A stretch of DNA of 61,616 nt, the filler included, from Squatina squatina (lineage: Eukaryota): NCBI GenBank assembly GCA_031763465.1. It is 3 parts of 3 records of this genome, joined end to end, with 100 filler letters (N's around TTAATTAATTAA, not from the genome) between each part and the next. Parts side by side here need not be neighbours in the genome. Positions count along the whole stretch, not along the records: positions 1 to 28,162 come from JARFOE010000115.1; 2 more parts are not named here. One strand, written 5' to 3'. Shown one piece after another: positions 5,779-51,322 of this stretch. The notes under the pieces are model-generated. The model was not told where the DNA came from. It saw only the letters and a program-made list of their open reading frames with translations, and did not search any database. Numbering within the stretch: position 1 is the first letter of the stretch; every line of letters begins with the position of its first letter. The position numbers and the translations under genes were made by a program.

Positions 5779-6539
5779 CTATGAGGTAAACATCCAGTTC
5801 CTCCAGCTTTTCTTCAACCTCAGCAAAGCTAGGTCAACGTCTGCCTGTTTCATTTTACACACCATCTCCCTGTCATCCCACTTCGCATCCTTCCTCACTA
5901 CCAGCAGACTTGTGAAAATGTCTGGCAGCTTGCCTTCTGAACTAGTATAAGGAGAGGCGGTGTGGAACCAATTATTGTTCTTACAGTTATCAAGAAACTC
6001 ATTCTTTATGGCTGCCACATCAGCAATTTCCACTGCTGCTTCAGATACAACCTGAGCACACGGATTGATTGATGCAGAGCCAGCAATATCACTAGTGCGG
6101 CTTCTGCAGTCCAAAGTGGGTGGTGGCTGGCCCATTCGTTCTACCTTCACACCATTGTCTCTTACAATTGAAGCTGTTTCTTTCACATGACTGCCTACCA
6201 TCACCTCATAACCATCATTGTTGTTCAGTTCCAGGTCCCAGGCTTTTAACCGCTGTGTGGAGACCAAGTTTTGCAAAGCAGTTACTTCTGCTGCTCGTCC
6301 ACTCTCCTGCTGAAACTCAGCAGGTTTTGAAGAGGCCTTGCCCTTCTGTTCAGCTAAGCAAGAGTTTGAAACAGCATTTTCTGCCGCTTCCAATGCATTG
6401 TTCAGGATATCAGCCAAGTCCAGGCTATTGTCTGCCGTCTCACAGGACAGCTCAGTCTCACCTAGCATTTTATCACACACATCTGATGCTCCGTTATGAA
6501 CAGACATCCACAATTTTGTCGGGACTTGCAGAGTTTCAC
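5779..6539 (-). CDS. Large ORF/exon fragment resembling the formin-1 isoform-IV-specific exon, inside the FMN2 locus (5' part lost in gap, ends in TAG)
   Basis: About 250 open codons. 5815-5928 encodes LPDIFTSLLVVRKDAKWDDREMVCKMKQADVDLALLRL, which aligns without gaps to the recalled FMN1 isoform IV motif LPAFFSGLRVLKKGATAEGGETITEIKPKDGDLALLKL. Confidence 0.6.
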
Positions 6540-6639: not shown

Positions 6640-7930
6640 CATTGGAAGAAAAGTCAAATCCATTTTGTGAGAATGCCACATCACTCACAGGACCATTGCC
6701 CACCTTCAGGCGGTGTTCAGCAGCAGTTTCTATGGAAACCTGCCTCTCGTTTACTGCAGCCTCTAGACGCTCTGCATTTGCACTAAATCCGTTATATTTA
6801 GCTAAAGTGCTGTAAGGTTCCTCAGTTTTAGTCTCCGTCTCGTCCTGCTCCTGAAGGCTCTCGAGAGAGGCAAGGCTTCCTACCTTGCTGGCCTTTGATG
6901 AGACATGTTCCACATCAGGGACGTTTTCTTTGTTGTCAGTGCCCGCCAGGACTACAAATTGCTCAGTTTGCAGGAGGTTTTCAATTTCTTTCTCCCGTGT
7001 TTGCCGTTTCTCAGCAGCTGCGCTGATTGACCCCTGCTGCAGCTTAATGGCATGCTGAATATCAGAGAGCAAATCCTCATGTTCTGCAGCTGAATGAAAG
7101 CTGTAAATATCTGTATCCGAGCCAGAGCTAACCCTTTGTCCGTCCTGGAGCTCCGAAGCAGCTGGGAGGCTGTCGTTAGTGATGTCTAAATGCTCGGCTT
7201 CAGTGTCCGACAGGCCCCCTTCATCAGCAGAAATGCTTATATCCGGAGTCTTTGTAACCGAATGGATGCTGTCTAGTTCTTCAGTGGGCAGGGCCGGATT
7301 TTCCAATATATCATCCTTTGATCCGCCGGTGCCATTTTTACCCCGTGACAGCGGTTTTCTCTTCCTAATGGAGAAGACCGATCGAGAAGACTCAGATTTC
7401 TTCCGTCTGTTGCCGTCACTTCCCTTGCCGTGTTTAGCGTGTGTTTTCTTCCCTCCCGACCCTTTCTTTGTGCCATCGGTATCCTTGGGCCTAGCATCCT
7501 CCACGCATTCCTGCCCGTCCCCTCCAGCCTTTTTCAGCTTCCCGTCCTGGTTGCCCATGTTGCCGAACGGCCAAAAGCTCTTCGCCCTCAAGCCATGCTC
7601 AGCCTCCCGGGTCCTGTCCGGCAGTGCCGAGCCGTTCGCTGCTCCAGCTGTAGTCTTGGCACCTCCCGGAGAGGCAGGGAAAACAGCCGCTCGCTCGGTG
7701 CCGGAGATTCTCCCATCTGCTGTTGCAATCTTTTTGCATAATGTGGTCCCCTCCTCTGGGACATGCTCAGTGCAGTCAGTGCTTCTGCACGGGCTGTGAA
7801 CAAACAGCCTGGCAGCTTTCCCCACACAAGGGGTGAAGCACTTCTCGGTGATGTTGTCAGTCAGTCTCTCCACTGTGTGAATGGCTTTCATAGTGGAGTC
7901 GGCATTTCTTTTAAAGAAGAGAAAATCCAT
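6640..7930 (-). CDS. FMN2: Formin-2, first coding exon (3' part lost in gap); canonical [12 protein letters not shown] at 7558, upstream in-frame ATGs at 7891 and 7930
   Basis: FMN2 motifs [41 protein letters not shown] and [22 protein letters not shown]. Acceptor (T/C)n-CCAG just before 7990. Same strand as and next to CHRM3, as in other vertebrates. Confidence 0.93.
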
Positions 7931-8606
7931 CAGATGAGGTCAGAGGCACAGGTCTACCAGCTGAAGCTTTGAAATACTGCAATTGTTCTCCTGGAAGAAA
8001 GAAAAAAAAGAGGGGGTGGTGGAAAAGGATTAATTACACACTGCAGAATTAGTTTAAAAATAGAAAAGATAAAAATGCATCTGTAGTTTCTGTTCCCTTA
8101 GAAACAGATTGCAGCCCACAAGGATACAGGATCCCCAGGGAGATAAAAAAAAACAGGCTGCTGAGACGCCCCTCAAACAAAATCAATGGATTAGAAGCAT
8201 CCTTGTCGGTCTTACTGAAAGACCGATTGGTGCTCATCCTTTTGCTTGCACCCGATGACACCAAAAGCTAACATTAAGCAAATGTTATAGCTTTGCTGAG
8301 GCTGTACATTTCCACCTGGTGTTTGACGACAAAGACTTTCCATAGATGCTAACTGCAAATAATAAATCCACTTGATTTTATGACAGGATTACTCCTGCAA
8401 GGTAAAAGCATGTCCTCACATTTAAGAGTGTGCATTAAATTTCTATATGCATGCATTATATTGTAGGAAGCAAGTCAGAATATCAAAGCTTTCAGTTCAA
8501 AATCCTTGTCTTTGACCACAAATTCCTCCTTAGCTCACTTCACCCTACTTCTGCAGCCTCGTCCAGCCCTACAGCGGATCTTGCATTCTCTAGTCCTCCG
8601 AATCTG

Positions 8607-8740: not shown

Positions 8741-8980
8741 NNNNNNNNNNNNNNNNNNNNNNNNNNNNNNNNNNNNNNNNNNNNNNNNNNNNNNNNNNNN
8801 NNNNNNNNNNNNNNNNNNNNNNNNNNNNNNNNNNNNNNNNATGTAAACACCATCCGACACATAATACAAAAGCAGCGTATACTTCAGCCGTGTGCTCACA
8901 ACACTGATAGCCTGTATGCTCTTGACCAAAGCAGTTAATTGGTACCAAACAGAAACAATCACAATCTGATAAATATAGCT

Positions 8981-10556
8981 TCAGGAAGCCTCACAAGGAA
9001 TTCTTTTATGGAAAACAACAGCTTGTCTTGGTTGATACTGTTGTCTGCGCCTTTTTCTCTTTTCCCATTGACAAAGCAGTAACATTTTGAAAGTGTTTCT
9101 GAAGGTTTTGTTGCACAGTGCATAGCACATGGGATTCACAGTGCTGTTGACATAGCACAACCAATAGCCTAGGCGCCACAGTGCTTCACGAATGCATTTG
9201 TCACAAAATGTGTTTACCAGTACCATTATGTTATAAGGTGTCCACGTGATAATAAAGGCAAGTAAAATTGCACTGAGTGTCTGCGCAGCCTTTTTTTCTT
9301 TTACAAGTGACATTCTTTTGCGCTTTGTAGTCTGACTTCTTGTCTTCGAGGCAAATGCTTTAGCAATTGTGGCTTCTCTGAAAGACAAAGGCATAGACGT
9401 GGATGACCTTGCTTAAGATGCAATTCCTCCAGAAGTCTTTGAAGGATGGATTGATGGCATTGACTGAACAGGAAGCTTGCCAAAATGCTGGTGGAAGCTA
9501 TTGCCTTGCTCATCTGAGTCTTTGAACTGTTGTGATCTGAATTTTCTTTCCTTTTCATTAACATCTGCTTTGGCAAGTTCATCACTGCAAAGATCCATGT
9601 TATCTACATTTGTGGATTTAGATAGGCTGGCAGCTGTCTTAAGCCCAGGTAGGTTTAACACAATGGAGTAAATTGCTCTTGTTTCTGATACTGCATCATC
9701 CTCATCAGATGAAGCTGAATGATCCAAAGAGCCACCACCATCATTGTTGTTCCAACTATCACTGCTGCTTGGCTCTTGTTCACCCTCAGTGCTAGCCCTC
9801 CATGTTTTTGTGGTTGGCCAAAAGTGGCACCTTCCATGCCGTCTTCTATCTTTCATTCCTGCCCGCTGCAGTTCGTTGCTGCTGCAACTCCTGGAACTGC
9901 CTGTTTGAGGAACAAAGTGTGTGGTTTCCATGTCACTGGTAGAGGCCTGGAGAGCTGCCAGTTCTTTGGTGCGTTTCTCAGTTTCCTTGTAGATTCTCCA
10001 GTATAGGATTGTCATGATGGTGACAGGCAAGTAAAATGCAGCAATGGCAGTACCAAAAGTAATTATTGGTTCAGATAAAAACTGTATGGAGCATTCATCG
10101 GGCGACACAGTTCTTTCACCAACAAAATATTGCCAGAACAAAATGGCAGGGGCCCAGAGTATAAATGAGACTATCCAAGCCAGGCCAATCATTATTCCAG
10201 CTCTTTTGGGCGTTCGTTTAGCTCTGTAGGTGAGTGGTCGTGTAATTGATAAGTATCTGTCAAAACTTATAACTAGAAGATTCATGACAGAGGCATTGCT
10301 GGCAACATAGTCAATGGCAAGCCAAAGGTCACATGCTACGTTGCCTAAAGCCCATCTGTCCATTATGATGTACGTCGTGTACAGGTTCATTGAGATCACT
10401 CCAATTATCACATCTGCAAAGGCGAGACTTAGAAGAAAGTAATTGTTCACTGTTTTTAATTGTTTGTTCACCTTAAATGCAACCATAACAAGAATGTTTC
10501 CTATGATCGTCACCAAGGAGAGTATTCCTGTGAAGAATGCAATCAAAACAACTTGC
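8981..10556 (-). CDS. CHRM3: Muscarinic acetylcholine receptor M3, intronless CDS (N-terminus in gap), interrupted by an in-frame TAA at 9413-9415; possible pseudogene or sequence error
   Basis: TM1-TM5 (GNILV, LAFAD, DYVASN, DRY, AAFYLP) and TM6-TM7 ([22 protein letters not shown]) lie in one frame. M3-type i3 and C-tail ([21 protein letters not shown]). FMN2 synteny. Confidence 0.93.
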
Positions 10557-28162: not shown

Positions 28163-28262
28163 NNNNNNNNNNNNNNNNNNNNNNNNNNNNNNNNNNNNNN
28201 NNNNNNTTAATTAATTAANNNNNNNNNNNNNNNNNNNNNNNNNNNNNNNNNNNNNNNNNNNN
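28163..28262. other. Artificial scaffold-joining linker
   Basis: N44-TTAATTAATTAA(28207-28218)-N44, a six-frame stop spacer. Confidence 0.97.
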
Positions 28263-30428
28263 TGTTAAAGGCGTTATATAAATACATGATTTTGTTTTTG
28301 CAAAATGGAGTTTAAAGTAAATCATTTTTATTATTTGCTGTAGTGAAATAAAATAACCTAGACCAGACTGGAGCATCTGAATTGTACAATGCTGTCACAA
28401 TTTGTAGGTAGAGGGCAAGAACATTTCAATTTGTTTCACCTTTCTGAGAAAGGAGAGCATCTTTTGAGAAGATGGAAAACTTAAAGTATCAGGTCTTCAA
28501 ATAACGGTCCATCTTTACAAATTTTATTTTTTAAATGAAGAACTGCTCTATTCTGCAAACTTTAATCTAGCCCAGTGTGTAGCTGCCATAGTAGCTGAAA
28601 TATTTTTCTACGGCAATGGAAGTTCATAATGGCCCGCATTTTGCTGTTCGTGGTGAAGGAATGGCGCTGACAGTTGCTCAGAGTTTTCGCAAACTGCTCC
28701 GTGTATATTTCCCCAGATCCTGCATCTTTCTAGCGAGGCACCCTCTGCAGGGGATCTGCAGCGTCTGTAAGCAGGAAAAGAAACTAGGTTCTTCAACCAA
28801 TCGATTGAAGGATCCTTAATTAGACATGCATAGTCCAAATCAGGAAGTATAAAGCAGGAAATATAAATTGGATTTAAATGATGTTCAGAAAGCAAAATAA
28901 AGATTGGGAAATACAGATAGGATTAAGGGAGATAGGTAAAAGAGATGGACAGAAAAAGTTTTTAAATATATTTTAAAATCTCCAACACTAACTTTCTTTA
29001 GAGGGAATGAGACTCCACACTTATAAAATTAATTTTTCAGGGCCAGAAAGGTTGTCCAGCAGTAATTTTCACTTATTACGCTGTTTAAAAACTCACCCAC
29101 TCCTGAATGCACCAGCCCTAACTTTCAGCCATTCTTGGTGCAGAACTAGTGGGTAAGTACAGCAAGTTCATGCTGTTGAAGTCATTTCAATAGAGTCTAT
29201 TGGTGAGGACTGCAACAGCGCACCCTGTGGGGAAGCAGGGTATCTGACATCTACTTCCAGATTTTCGTCTTTAATTGCACATGTGCGGACGCCAGAACTT
29301 GCTATCCAATTTAGCCAGTAATAACCGTGAGAGCCTCATGTTATTACCGCAAACTCCAAGCCATTATATTGAGCATTTTAAGTGAAATGCCGGTGCTGCA
29401 TGACAGCTGTGCAACAAATGCACTGAAGAAAGCATTAAGTATCCATTTCTTCCACATCACGCTCCTAATTGAGCACTTTCATATTAAACAATATTTGGCC
29501 TCTAACTTGAACTTTTCTTTATATACAGCATGCGAATTCTGAACAGTCTGATTTTCCTGAACCTGTTCTGGAGCCTTCTGTAGGACTGGAGGAACCTTCT
29601 TCTAGTGTAGCTGTTAGTGCTGATAACATTTCCAGTTCGACTCCCTCAGAGAACTCCTCATTCTCACAGCATAGGCAAGTGTCCTACTGTATCATTACCA
29701 AAAATGCAGGACTAGCTGCATTTNNNNNNNNNNNNNNNNNNNNNNNNNNNNNNNNNNNNNNNNNNNNNNNNNNNNNNNNNNNNNNNNNNNNNNNNNNNNN
29801 NNNNNNNNNNNNNNNNNNNNNNNTTGTATATTTTTGTGGGTATTCCCATTTACACTAATAGTAATTCTGAACGTATGGAACTCACCACAAGTGCAAATGG
29901 GAATACCCTGACTTTGATTGGTTGGGCCGGCCCATGTGACCCTAGGTATGCTTGCGAAGTGCCTCCGTCCCTGGGATACATGGGACTCTACGTAGGCCGA
30001 CACATAGAAGCCCAGGACCGCAAGTATCTGAACCTCCCGGACCACCAGGTACTTTTGTAGATATTTTTCAGGTCGGAGGCATCTGCCCGCAGGAAGCCTC
30101 CAACTGCAATTTCCGGGTCATTTGAATGGCTTGTTAAAAATATTGACAAATATGTTCAGAAACACTTCCTTGGAATTAATTAATGCAACTATGATATCCA
30201 GACAGGAATATAATTAATGTGACTTAAATGCAAGTGATTTATTATTGTGTATCAAAGCAAGTCAGACACCATATTTAAAGGTTATTAGTACAGTTTATTT
30301 TTAACTTCCTTCCAATTCATGGAACTAATGTAAAGTTCAGCTGCTTAAACCGTTTACAAATGATTACTGTTCATTGTCTAATCAGACTCAAGTAGATGGG
30401 TATATCTCAATATGTTTTCCTCCTTCAG

Positions 30429-30584
30429 GTGCAATTTTTGAGGAAACTGCCAGAAAGGATGACAAAATGTTTCGATTAGCCGTGGCTGAAATGAACATGA
30501 ATGAAGAAATATTGCAAAATGAAAAGATAACATTCTCTGTCAGATTTGTTGATTCCAACAATCCTTTTCAAGCTGTTCAAGAGG
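30429..30584 (+). CDS. Delta-type glutamate receptor (GRID2-like), exon 2 equivalent
   Basis: 156 bp, AG/GT bounded; [52 protein letters not shown]. Confidence 0.93.
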
Positions 30585-31035
30585 GTAAGGCAGCAGTTTC
30601 TCAGCTATTTATCTCATTAACCTTTAAATTGGGGAGACTATTGTAGTCTTTCTCATCTTTATTATTGTACATATTTTAAGATTTCCTAACCTGTGGGCTT
30701 CATTTTGATTACGGAAGTCAATTCTACTGAGGCTAAAGGTTAATTTTGTGCTGGAAATTGATTATTTTTGAAGCAATTGTTGGGGCATTGAATATTCATT
30801 TTCATAGTCAGTCAGAACTGTTTAAAATTCCTAGCTTTGTGATTCTGTGGCTCTCACTTTTTAAAAGAAAATCAATAGAGCTTTGAAACAAAATATAGTA
30901 ATCAATTAACCTTTAGTACGAACATCCATGCGATCATCTAGTCTTCCAGAACTTAGGTAAAAGTAAGTTCTATTGTTATTGCTGTAAGCTTCCTACTTAT
31001 CTTAATTTGCTGCTGTGGTGAAGAATAAACATTGT

Positions 31036-33522: not shown

Positions 33523-34735
33523 CGAACTAAAGTTTTGAATGACATTCTCTGTGACATTCTCTCCTTACCCTCCTTGACCTCTCTGCAGCCTTTGACACAT
33601 TCGGTTACATGGCCCTCCTCCAATGCCTCTCTTCCGTTGTCAAGTTGAGTGGGACTGCCCTTGCTTGCCTCCACTCTTGCCTAACCAGCTATAGACAAAG
33701 CATCTCTAGCAATGGCTTCTCTTCCCACCACTGCACCATTATCTCTGGAGTCATCAAAGGATCCATTTCTCATTCTCATCTACATGATGCCCCTTGATGA
33801 TATCATCCATAATAATGGGGTCAGCTTCCACTTGTATTTGGAGAACACCTGTTGCACCTCCCCATCTCCTCTCCTGATCTCGCCACTGCTGTCAAATTTC
33901 TTGTCTGAAATCCAGTCTTGGATTATTCATAACTTCCTCTAGCTAAATATTGGGAAGATCAATGCTAACCCTACCACAAACTCTGTACCCTTATCAGTGA
34001 CTGCACACCCAACTCTGGCCACTGTCTCAGGCTGAAACAAACTATTCACAATCTTAATATCCTACTCAATGCCAAGTTGAGTCACCAACCTCATATCCTC
34101 TCCAATATAAAGGCCACCTGCTTTCACTTTCATATATATCATATCTGCATTGTTACTTCTGCCCATCTGCCACTAATATCATCAATCATACCTTCATTAA
34201 CTCCCGACTTGATTACTCCAATGCTTTCCTAGCCGCCCTCCCATCCTCCACATTCTATAAATTGCAGCTTATCCAAAACTCTGCTGACTATATCCTATCC
34301 AGAACCAAATCATGCTCGCCCATCTCTTCCATCCATGCTGACTTAATTTGACTCCTGGTTGCTAGCTTCTCGAAATTAAAATTCTCATCCTTGTGTTTAA
34401 ATCCCTCCATGGCCACACCTCTATCTATATATCCTCCTCAAACCGTACAACCCATCCCTATACTTTCTGATCCTCAGAGTCCATCCTCCCTCCCTTCACT
34501 CCACCATTGGCAATTGTGCCTTCAGCTGCTTAGGTCACATTCCCTGGAATTCTCTTTGTAAAACACACTGCCCCTCCACTTCCATTCCCTATAAGATGTG
34601 CCTTAAACCCCACCCCTTCTCTCCAATTTCTCCTCCTTTGGGTCAACATCTATTTTTCCTTTGGCCTCTGTGAAACGCCTTTGGGTGTTGGCCTACGTTA
34701 AAGGCACTAAATAAATGCAATTGCTGTTGTTTGTT
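33523..34735 (+). mobile_element. L2 LINE, RT to 3' tail, decayed
   Basis: LLDLSAAFDT-like (CTCCTTGACCTCTCTGCAGCCTTTGACAC), SRLDYSNA and LQLIQNSA motifs; tail AAAGGCACTAAATAAATGCAA(TTG)n ends just before an exon acceptor. Confidence 0.9.
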
Positions 34736-34773
34736 GTTGATTACATTAATGGAAAATGTCTTTCTTTTTTCAG

Positions 34774-35058
34774 CCTGTGACCTTGTGTCACAAGGGATTT
34801 TGGCTCTTGTCAGTTCCACGAGCTGCACACCTTCAGCCTCACTGCAGTCCTTTGCAGATGGAATGCATATTCCTCACCTCTACATTCAGCGTACGCCAGC
34901 TGGAACTCCACGTTCTCAATGTGCTATTGCAAGGAATACAAGAAACAATGATTACACGCTTTCTGTCCGTCCTCCTGATTATTTCAATGAAGTCATTCTT
35001 AAAGTAATCACGGAATTTTCCTGGCAGAAGTTCATGATCTTCTATGATGATGCATATG
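34774..35058 (+). CDS. GRID2-like, exon 3 equivalent
   Basis: 285 bp, AG/GT bounded; [42 protein letters not shown]. Confidence 0.93.
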
Positions 35059-36702
35059 GTAATAACAGAATCTGGTTTTCCTTTTAACTGTCAAGTACAA
35101 ATAACTGTACTTGAATTTATAGCTTTAATACTGATGTAAAACTCACAATTCTTCAGATTAAAATGATTTGTTTGATATACATTTGAGCAAAATTATATTT
35201 AAGGCAAATCAAGCCAAACACCTGAGATAATGCCCATGTTATAATTTCTNNNNNNNNNNNNNNNNNNNNNNNNNNNNNNNNNNNNNNNNNNNNNNNNNNN
35301 NNNNNNNNNNNNNNNNNNNNNNNNNNNNNNNNNNNNNNNNNNNNNNNNNNNNNNNNNNNNNNNNNNNNNNNNNNNNNNNNNNNNNNNNNNNNNNNNNNNN
35401 NNNNNNNNNNNNNNNNNNNNNNNNNNNNNNNNNNNNNNNNNNNNNNNNNNNNNNNNNNNNNNNNNNNNNNNNNNNNNNNNNNNNNNNNNNNNNNNNNNNN
35501 NNNNNNNNNNNNNNNNNNNNNNNNNNNNNNNNNNNNNNNNNNNNNNNNNNNNNNNNNNNNNNNNNNNNNNNNNNNNNNNNNNNNNNNNNNNNNNNNNNNN
35601 NNNNNNNNNNNNNNNNNNNNNNNNNNNNNNNNNNNNNNNNNNNNNNNNNNNNNNNNNNNNNNNNNNNNNNNNNNNNNNNNNNNNNNNNNNNNNNNNNNNN
35701 NNNNNNNNNNNNNNNNNNNNNNNNNNNNNNNNNNNNNNNNNNNNNNNNNNNNNNNNNNNNNNNNNNNNNNNNNNNNNNNNNNNNNNNNNNNNNNNNNNNN
35801 NNNNNNNNNNNNNNNNNNNNNNNNNNNNNNNNNNNNNNNNNNNNNNNNNNNNNNNNNNNNNNNNNNNNNNNNNNNNNNNNNNNNNNNNNNNNNNNNNNNN
35901 NNNNNNNNNNNNNNNNNNNNNNNNNNNNNNNNNNNNNNNNNNNNNNNNNNNNNNNNNNNNNNNNNNNNNNNNNNNNNNNNNNNNNNNNNNNNNNNNNNNN
36001 NNNNNNNNNNNNNNNNNNNNNNNNNNNNNNNNNNNNNNNNNNNNNNNNNNNNNNNNNNNNNNNNNNNNNNNNNNNNNNNNNNNNNNNNNNNNNNNNNNNN
36101 NNNNNNNNNNNNNNNNNNNNNNNNNNNNNNNNNNNNNNNNNNNNNNNNNNNNNNNNNNNNNNNNNNNNNNNNNNNNNNNNNNNNNNNNNNNNNNNNNNNN
36201 ATTGTCTGCTTGTTAAAGTACTAAACTGTGATTATCACAGCTGAGCTCTGATTCGTTGGCTTAAATTTCTGCATAGTTGCAATCATGATGCTGCCAACAG
36301 GAAACTGCAATATTTGGAAATTGAGTGGCTTGCACATTTATTTTCCATTATGGAGACTTACAGACATCGTCATCTCCGCCACCACTGGTTTTTCTGTTGT
36401 TTACTTAATTATCTACCAATCAGTTCATCTGGCAGATATATTAACACAAAAAAAGAATTGAAAATATTTCAATCTAATTGGTTCGTACCATAAGAGGCCA
36501 CTCATTTTCTCCAAATTAAAAATATTTAAGGAAAATAGGTACTGTTTTTATTTTGATGTGTGAATGGTGGATACTTGTGGTTATTGTTTGCAGCATGGTC
36601 ATAAAGCAGTTAATAGGACAACTATCATTTGTTCCTTATAATAATACATCAATCAATGTACTGAATGAATTCTCATACTTCATTTTTTGAACATTTGAAC
36701 AG

Positions 36703-49933: not shown

Positions 49934-50501
49934 TTAAAGAACCAAATGGGTGTAAATCCTCTTACTCTGCGCAAAACCAGTTAATAGGAATTTATTTTAG
50001 AATCTAGAAAGATGAGCNNNNNNNNNNNNNNNNNNNNNNNNNNNNNNNNNNNNNNNNNNNNNNNNNNNNNNNNNNNNNNNNNNNNNNNNNNNNNNNNNNN
50101 NNNNNNNNNNNNNNNNNCTTAATCCAGTCTTTCTTTCCCTCTGTATTTCTTTTTCTGTATCTGATTTGACATTCAATTTACCCCCTCTAATTCACTTTCC
50201 TTCTCAGTCCTTGCACTCTTTATTTCTCAATCCTGTAATCCTATTAGTGAAGGAGATGCACTGTTTGTTCCATTGTTCACCAGGCTCCCAGGTGCCTGGT
50301 TGTCCTCACGCCATTAGCAGCTCGCACTTCCAGCAAGTTAGTGAGCAAAAACTGTTAAAACCTAAACGTGCACGAACGGTGCAGGCTCCGCTCCAGCAAA
50401 ATCTGGGCCAATGCGACATCTTATCTCAAAATGGCTACGATCATTTTTTTTAATCATTTGGTGACTCTTTTTAATGGTAATTAAAAAATGTATGTACTTA
50501 C

Positions 50502-50827
50502 AGCCAACCATCATCATAGCCACAGAAAATATCTTCTCCCCATCCGTCGTAGGAGCAATGTTGCCAAATCCTATTGTGGTAAGGCTTGTCATGGTAAAGT
50601 AAAGGGAAGATATATACAGTGAATCCTTTGTGGGTCCCCCTTCCCACTGTCCGGTGCCACTGGCATTAAAGTGGTAGGGTGTTCCAATACTTAGTCCCAG
50701 TTGATAGAGCCAGCTGTCTGTTTTTATTCTGTTGGTGACTTCATCGATGACCTCGTAGTCCCCGATACTGTACCATATGCAGGCGAGCCAATGAGCCACT
50801 AAGCCAAAAACGCAGACCAGGAGTACC
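50502..50827 (-). CDS. KCNH5: KCNH5, exon 7 equivalent (5' part in gap): S5 and pore
   Basis: [49 protein letters not shown]; donor GTAAGT. Confidence 0.95.
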
Positions 50828-50929
50828 NNNNNNNNNNNNNNNNNNNNNNNNNNNNNNNNNNNNNNNNNNNNNNNNNNNNNNNNNNNNNNNNNNNNNNNNN
50901 NNNNNNNNNNNNNNNNNNNNNNNNNNNAC

Positions 50930-51322
<393 letters not shown>

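Follow-up and report, generated by a model that had tools for sequence, protein, structure and literature searches.

A lone in-frame stop in the CHRM3 gene of Squatina squatina, most likely a consensus error in a fragmented assembly

In this report we analyse the muscarinic receptor gene CHRM3 in a 61,616-nucleotide stretch of the Squatina squatina assembly GCA_031763465.1 (the whole of which is called the window below), where the coding frame is interrupted by a single in-frame stop codon. The most likely reading, to which we give slightly better than even weight, is that this stop represents one wrong consensus base, T read as A, in a fragmented assembly. Such an error would have struck a leucine codon, low read depth presumably standing behind it, and the animal would likely make a normal full-length M3 receptor; in all likelihood the species itself does not carry the stop as a feature. 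An earlier note on this DNA had named the gene, the stop and three alternatives, i.e. loss, a split receptor and a consensus error, and was right to do so; its suggestion of a gene decaying under relaxed selection is not borne out, the receptor core being strongly constrained and the substitutions it listed being common to intact genes. The weight given to each of the five readings discussed here is our judgement and was not computed.

The CHRM3 locus and its stop codon

On the minus strand of the window a muscarinic receptor frame of 524 codons with a single in-frame stop runs from 10555 to 8984 and is closed by a terminal TGA at 8983-8981. The span 8981..10556 given previously does contain the gene, only its start at 10556 being one base out of frame. 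The gene-bearing contig (8841..10556, 1,716 bases) is bounded by two 100-N gaps, and the N-terminal 75 codons lie outside the window, past the contig end, the tblastn alignment beginning at residue 76. One CHRM3 copy is found within the window. The top solved chains for the frame are those of M3 (616 bits vs 523 for M5), a search with the i3 loop returned named M3 proteins, and the nearest named protein is the M3 of Heptranchias perlo, with 94% identity across 524 residues. In a tree of 23 M3 proteins, made of M3 rows only, the window sequence is placed among sharks and rays (100/99), in one group with Heptranchias and Pristiophorus within which the order is left open, so that it probably belongs to a squalomorph shark. 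At the TM3 Asp, DRY, ECL2 Cys, WxxYN and NPxxY the window residue is, in every column, that of 141-143 of the 143 other M3 sequences, and the TM3 Asp, DRY, WTPYN and NPxCY are all retained, as had been claimed. By these sequence comparisons, the gene is the ordinary M3 receptor gene of the shark, orthologous to CHRM3.

The part upstream of the stop (9416..10555, minus strand), delimited by the frame and the M3 matches, comprises 380 codons, which encode TM1-TM5 together with the greater part of the i3 loop. The TAA follows at 9415-9413 as visible codon 381, which corresponds to residue 447 of the 590-residue mammalian M3, and its surroundings on the minus strand read GGA ATT GCA TCT TAA GCA AGG TCA TCC ACG TCT ATG CCT TTG, exactly as first described. 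Past it the frame was said to continue intact through TM6-TM7, and there is indeed no further stop or frameshift in the 524 codons. On the same strand lie a K383R change (9407..9409), six bases from the stop and recognised by comparison with relatives and M3 proteins; M388, the earliest in-frame Met past the stop (ATG 9392..9394); and M415 (ATG 9311..9313), the counterpart of mammalian M481, from which an open frame (8981..9313) encodes 110 residues, that is TM6-TM7 and the C-terminal tail, up to the normal stop. The initiation contexts ascribed to these codons were read correctly: weak for ATG 9394 (T at -3), and with A at -3 for ATG 9313.

The stop was seen in the assembly consensus, which was compared across the whole contig with sequencing runs of relatives, X1, X6, X7 and X8. 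As X1 resembles X6 and X7 resembles X8, these four runs stand for about two lineages; a further comparison, of X6, X7, X11 and X16, covered 9880-10556 only. All difference counts given below are minimum values, drawn from 40 of 82 rows for X1, X6, X7 and X8; differences at the stretch ends fall outside them, and changes of the relatives' own are included. At the stop site, which in each of the four runs is over 255 letters away from the ends of the contig, all have TTA (Leu), and Leu occupies this position in 24/24 cartilaginous-fish M3 proteins (22 named, 2 unnamed). The stop is one T>A change away from the ancestral TTA and is peculiar to the window sequence among those compared. It lies mid-contig, 573 and 1,142 bases from the contig ends. 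When 24 sequencing runs were screened for the words of the stretch, none of the 24 reached half of them, the best value being 0.44, and none therefore appears to come from this species. Run X11 has four silent states in common with the window vs X6, X7 and X16 (9880-10556), and on this basis is likely the nearest relative among the runs compared. Two particulars of the runs may be recorded. X1 and X6 miss 3 bases in the i3 loop at window position 9691, which are present in the window, X7 and X8. X11 (677 bases) has three amino-acid changes of its own (at 9935, 9954 and 10099) vs three silent ones, among them A201V, where 11/12 orthologues have Ala, too few to call relaxation.

Several other genes are represented in the window. 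As regards the conserved neighbourhood of CHRM3 with FMN2, what looks like an FMN2-like exon sits on a contig near that of CHRM3, although the contig order is possibly reference-derived. The minus-strand segments 6640-7939 and 5779-6539 are what we take to be an FMN2-like first exon; it is cut by a gap, and the frame stays open for 125 codons further upstream of a usual-looking start. Delta glutamate receptor-like exons are located on the plus strand at 30329-30646, judged by eye, and at 34674-35087. The latter, scoring 149.8 bits vs GluD2 and 110.9 vs GluD1, is clearly distinct from GluD2 and may be either GRID2 in diverged form or an additional paralogue. Two KCNH5 (Eag2) exons are found on the minus strand at 50928-51322 and 50362-50827, the second of which starts mid-coding at residue 350.

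Constraint on the receptor frame

Counted were the differences common to all compared relatives and the four silent sites shared with X11, some of the changes belonging to the relatives' stem. In the receptor core (codons 1-195 and 415-524) we noted at least 3 non-synonymous vs at least 15 synonymous differences (pN/pS 0.08), and for the differences listed neutrality of the core is rejected with p of about 2-4e-6. Without the four X11-shared sites the counts are at least 3 vs at least 11 (p about 1-2e-4), which gives a range of 0.08-0.11 for the core pN/pS. Non-synonymous and synonymous differences number at least 2 and at least 10 in TM1-5, at least 1 and at least 5 from M415 to the end, at least 10 and at least 8 in the i3 loop before the stop, and at least 4 and at least 4 in codons 382-414. 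In the beginning of the 3' UTR (8841..8980, minus strand) 1 of 140 bases differs from X1 and X6 among the differences listed (p 0.002). The end branch of the window sequence is ordinary in length (0.028 vs 0.019-0.032 in the three nearest tree rows). Signs of a unitary pseudogene other than the single TAA, namely a frameshift, a second stop or relaxed selection, were absent from the 524 codons. From its substitution pattern the core of CHRM3 is here under strong purifying selection, and the decay reading is unsupported.

Five substitutions had been put forward as marks of decay: DRYL, TVS, ECS, SQT and CIR. All five are present, but the positions are not conserved against them, each residue occurring in intact cartilaginous-fish M3, and an alignment with 24 such proteins shows the listed substitutions recurring in intact shark CHRM3. 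DRYL is found in 24/24 and CIR in 13/24 of them, with His in the remaining 11; both are accordingly ancestral rather than damage. TVS, ECS and SQT are each seen in 4-5/24 intact orthologues (S151, S156 and T409 in 4, 5 and 5 of the 24, respectively), and these three residues are new on the window lineage vs the compared relatives. As all five recur in intact cartilaginous-fish M3, we rejected them as decay evidence.

Missense residues absent from all 24 cartilaginous fishes are confined to V288A and K383R, and other species have 0-12 such unseen residues each, at otherwise invariant columns. Position 383 is K in 24/24 cartilaginous fishes, and R383 is found in 24/143 vertebrate M3 proteins. 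A wholly neutral path would be expected to give about 55 unseen residues vs the 2 observed, so that a dead-gene phase could take up no more than about 11% of it; were the window branch half of the path, the bound would be about 23%.

Origin of the stop codon

The 61.6-kb window is broken by 39 gaps, of which most are 100 N long; its contigs average 1.4 kb and do not overlap one another; the CHRM3 contig and one KCNH5 contig start within coding sequence. Identical 12-base spacers at 28207-28218 and 44278-44289, which have stops in all six frames and are each flanked by two 44-N runs, are artificial contig joiners left in the scaffold. A Lander-Waterman estimate, a rough inference that assumes 150-base reads, puts the depth at 5-14.5. 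In the CHRM3 frame 4.7% of single-base changes create a stop; if errors occurred at a rate of 1e-4, an assumed value, 30 Mb of coding DNA would hold about 140 false stops. With many false stops expected per genome, a scan hunting oddities will meet them. A consensus error asks for nothing more than one T>A at a codon that is Leu in all four runs and all 24 proteins. It also agrees with the lack of any other lesion, the constrained core and 3' UTR, the short-contig scaffold and the presence of CHRM3 in all vertebrates examined by Pedersen et al. (PMC6298421), a paper in whose accessible text 'shark' is mentioned once.

Several observations pull the other way. The stop stands mid-contig, more than 570 bases from both ends, and in a control, the KCNH5 exon 50928-51322, 128/130 residues equal human chain 7yid with conservative changes only, so that errors do not seem to be frequent. 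Depth and error rate are both assumed values, and repeats or scaffolder trimming could also shorten contigs. Purifying selection is equally compatible with a stop that is real but very young and with a split receptor that functions, and the segment between the stop and ATG 9313 is richer in differences than the rest of the loop (8/99 vs 18/555 bases, differences listed, p 0.04). Illumina errors tend to copy the preceding base (PMC8002175); the stop base and the K383R base both copy the preceding plus-strand base, and so do 13/42 of the differences listed (p about 0.1). A stricter run-edge pattern matches only 9408 and 9414, having been defined after those sites were seen. As an error signature of the stop, copying of the preceding base is weak. 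On balance we take the stop for a wrong base rather than an allele.

Next comes the possibility, unlikely yet to be taken seriously, of a real stop that is heterozygous or rare, one recessive loss-of-function allele having been kept by the assembler in a species which retains working M3. The same pattern would be predicted, one lesion without relaxation, and the mid-contig position is compatible with it. In humans, people heterozygous for CHRM3 variants show no clinical abnormality (PMC6899476), which implies that such alleles can segregate, although nonsense alleles should, by inference, be rare in so constrained a gene.

That the stop has become fixed, and only very recently, so that M3 is just lost or left as a weak remnant, seems to us improbable. 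A fixed stop would yield a TM1-5 protein and perhaps a few percent of rescued receptor. Since the CHRM3 coding region is one exon, the stop-bearing mRNA would likely evade nonsense-mediated decay; such escape has been argued for a human CHRM3 frameshift (PMC6899476). The mid-contig location would suit fixation as well, and so would the changes P151S, F156S, T407S, I409T, V397I and K383R, which set this lineage apart from the compared relatives. However, five of these six residues are found in intact cartilaginous-fish genes and the sixth, R383, in 24/143 vertebrate M3; there is no second lesion and no relaxation, and the neutral phase is bounded at about 11% (or 23%) of the path. Homozygous CHRM3 damage also leads to disease of the bladder and pupil, in humans as in mice (PMC6899476, PMC6470263). 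Carriers being normal and homozygotes diseased in humans, a heterozygous allele is the more plausible of the two and fixation the less. In the literature searched on CHRM3 loss or pseudogenes and on shark CHRM3 evolution, no report of CHRM3 loss was among the matches listed; of 232 papers matching on loss, the 15 listed do not mention CHRM3.

A third way of accepting the stop as real, which we hold to be quite improbable, is a selected two-piece receptor: normal translation would supply TM1-5 and the loop, internal entry of ribosomes at ATG 9313 (or 9394) would supply TM6-7, and the two pieces would assemble in the membrane, with selection maintaining both halves. Reassembly of M3 from TM1-5 and TM6-7 fragments is, as the earlier note stated, published (PMC11093360). 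In the same work M3 with a stop at 273 retained 52 vs 1120 fmol/mg of sites (4.7%) with normal affinity, and an inositol phosphate response of 89 vs 183%, 49% of maximal. Binding was lost when a further stop was placed at 503 but survived a frameshift or hairpin, and the authors assign the rescue to an internal start at M481 (PMC11093360), a mechanism that the earlier note did not cite. ATG 9313 is aligned with this M481 and yields the same 110-residue tail with an open TM6-7 frame. Given the rescue of the stop-273 receptor and the same restart codon and tail, a real stop would by analogy be more likely a strong hypomorph than a clean null. The TM1-5 and TM6-7 halves are both constrained here, and K383R falls within six codons left untranslated under either start, its clustering with the stop having p of 0.02-0.05; that clustering carries less weight, R383 being shared with other M3 proteins.

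Against a split receptor speak the start codons themselves. The M481 counterpart is Met in only 14/24 cartilaginous fishes and Ile or Leu in the other 10, all intact orthologues; M388 is Met in 24/24, but its ATG has the weak context. The stretch between the stop and ATG 9313 moreover looks constrained. In codons 382-414 three of the four changes give residues that intact genes also have, a result that free drift would seldom produce (p 0.012), with no indel or stop, and the non-synonymous rate is not above that of the rest of the loop (p 0.14). Release from protein constraint between the stop and ATG 9313 was not seen, a restart at 9394 being outside the reach of this test. The published rescue, seen in COS-7 cells after transfection, restores some 5% of sites, and the M3 tables in the accessible part of that paper contain no stop so close to the start Met (PMC11093360). 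A special RNA fold for an internal start was not detected (z -0.19), no shark tail-only M3 protein was present among 51 short matches (best identity 83%), and an exact look-up of four fragment proteins returned no match. The case for long-standing split-receptor use, as far as sequence can tell, is thin. Two non-shark M3 tail predictions that begin at the M481 counterpart, P0148 and P0149 (110 and 109 residues, on contigs of 1-2 kb), are probably products of broken contigs.

Bypass of a real stop at the RNA level, by a cryptic in-frame i3 intron, readthrough or editing that would restore a one-piece receptor, we regard as scarcely credible: teleost muscarinic genes have acquired introns within the i3 loop (PMC6298421) and a fair acceptor, a pyrimidine tract ending in CAG at 9378 (9378..9397, minus strand), is the best such site past the stop, 35 bases from it, but the upstream donors all score at most 0.7 bits. 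The best cryptic pair, 9830 to 9378, would remove 453 bases; the scan used an approximate matrix, without control sites. The relatives have no difference at 9378-9397 among those listed, so the acceptor-like site is not new, and their contigs, one possibly from an RNA run, contain no splice joint. Editing of UAA to Trp requires both A's to be changed, and the stop is predicted to lie in a loop, not in a helix. The context is UAA-GCAA, not the leaky UGA-CUAG, and as a conserved readthrough context UAA-GCAA is absent from all four compared relatives; of the stop codons, UAA gave the least readthrough in either of the two contexts examined in PMC4132726.

Significance and known counterparts

Should the stop be an error or a stray allele, which taken together is rather probable, it stands only as a warning against counting isolated stops as gene losses in shark assemblies that are fragmented. 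If it were fixed, which is doubtful, CHRM3 would be disrupted in a vertebrate, the gene being present in all vertebrates examined in PMC6298421. M3 is needed for mammalian bladder and pupil contraction. A fixed stop would allow a direct test of whether internal restart in i3 sustains M3 signalling in an animal, and a split receptor, if true, would be a natural in vivo case of internal entry, known for M3 so far only in transfected cells.

Closest to the window gene are the M3 receptors of Heptranchias perlo (XP_067844393.1, P0002) and Pristiophorus japonicus (P0123), with 94% identity over 524 residues in gapless tblastn alignments and the same DRYL, binding and activation residues. They differ from it at the stop and at Arg383, where they have Leu and Lys, respectively, and the window is without the first 75 codons.

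A human CHRM3 frameshift, that of Weber et al. 2011, is reportedly located in the i3 loop. The homozygous human frameshift resembles the window gene as a natural truncation in a single coding exon, with predicted escape from nonsense-mediated decay and normal carriers (PMC6899476), and is set apart by the bladder and pupil disease that it causes (PMC6899476, PMC6470263).

The engineered receptors M3stop273 and M2stop228 (Fasciani et al. 2024, PMC11093360) share with the window an i3 stop, an open TM6-7 frame and a downstream counterpart of M481. M3stop273, however, was overexpressed, and its stop is near the loop start, 208 codons before M481 vs 34 in the window; the accessible text of PMC11093360 describes no natural case of a split receptor. 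When an M3 trunk (1-272) and tail (388-589) were co-expressed in that work, the pieces reassembled to 114 fmol/mg with normal affinity, but they were supplied on two plasmids, and the tail was about 90 loop residues longer than the one from ATG 9313 (PMC11093360).
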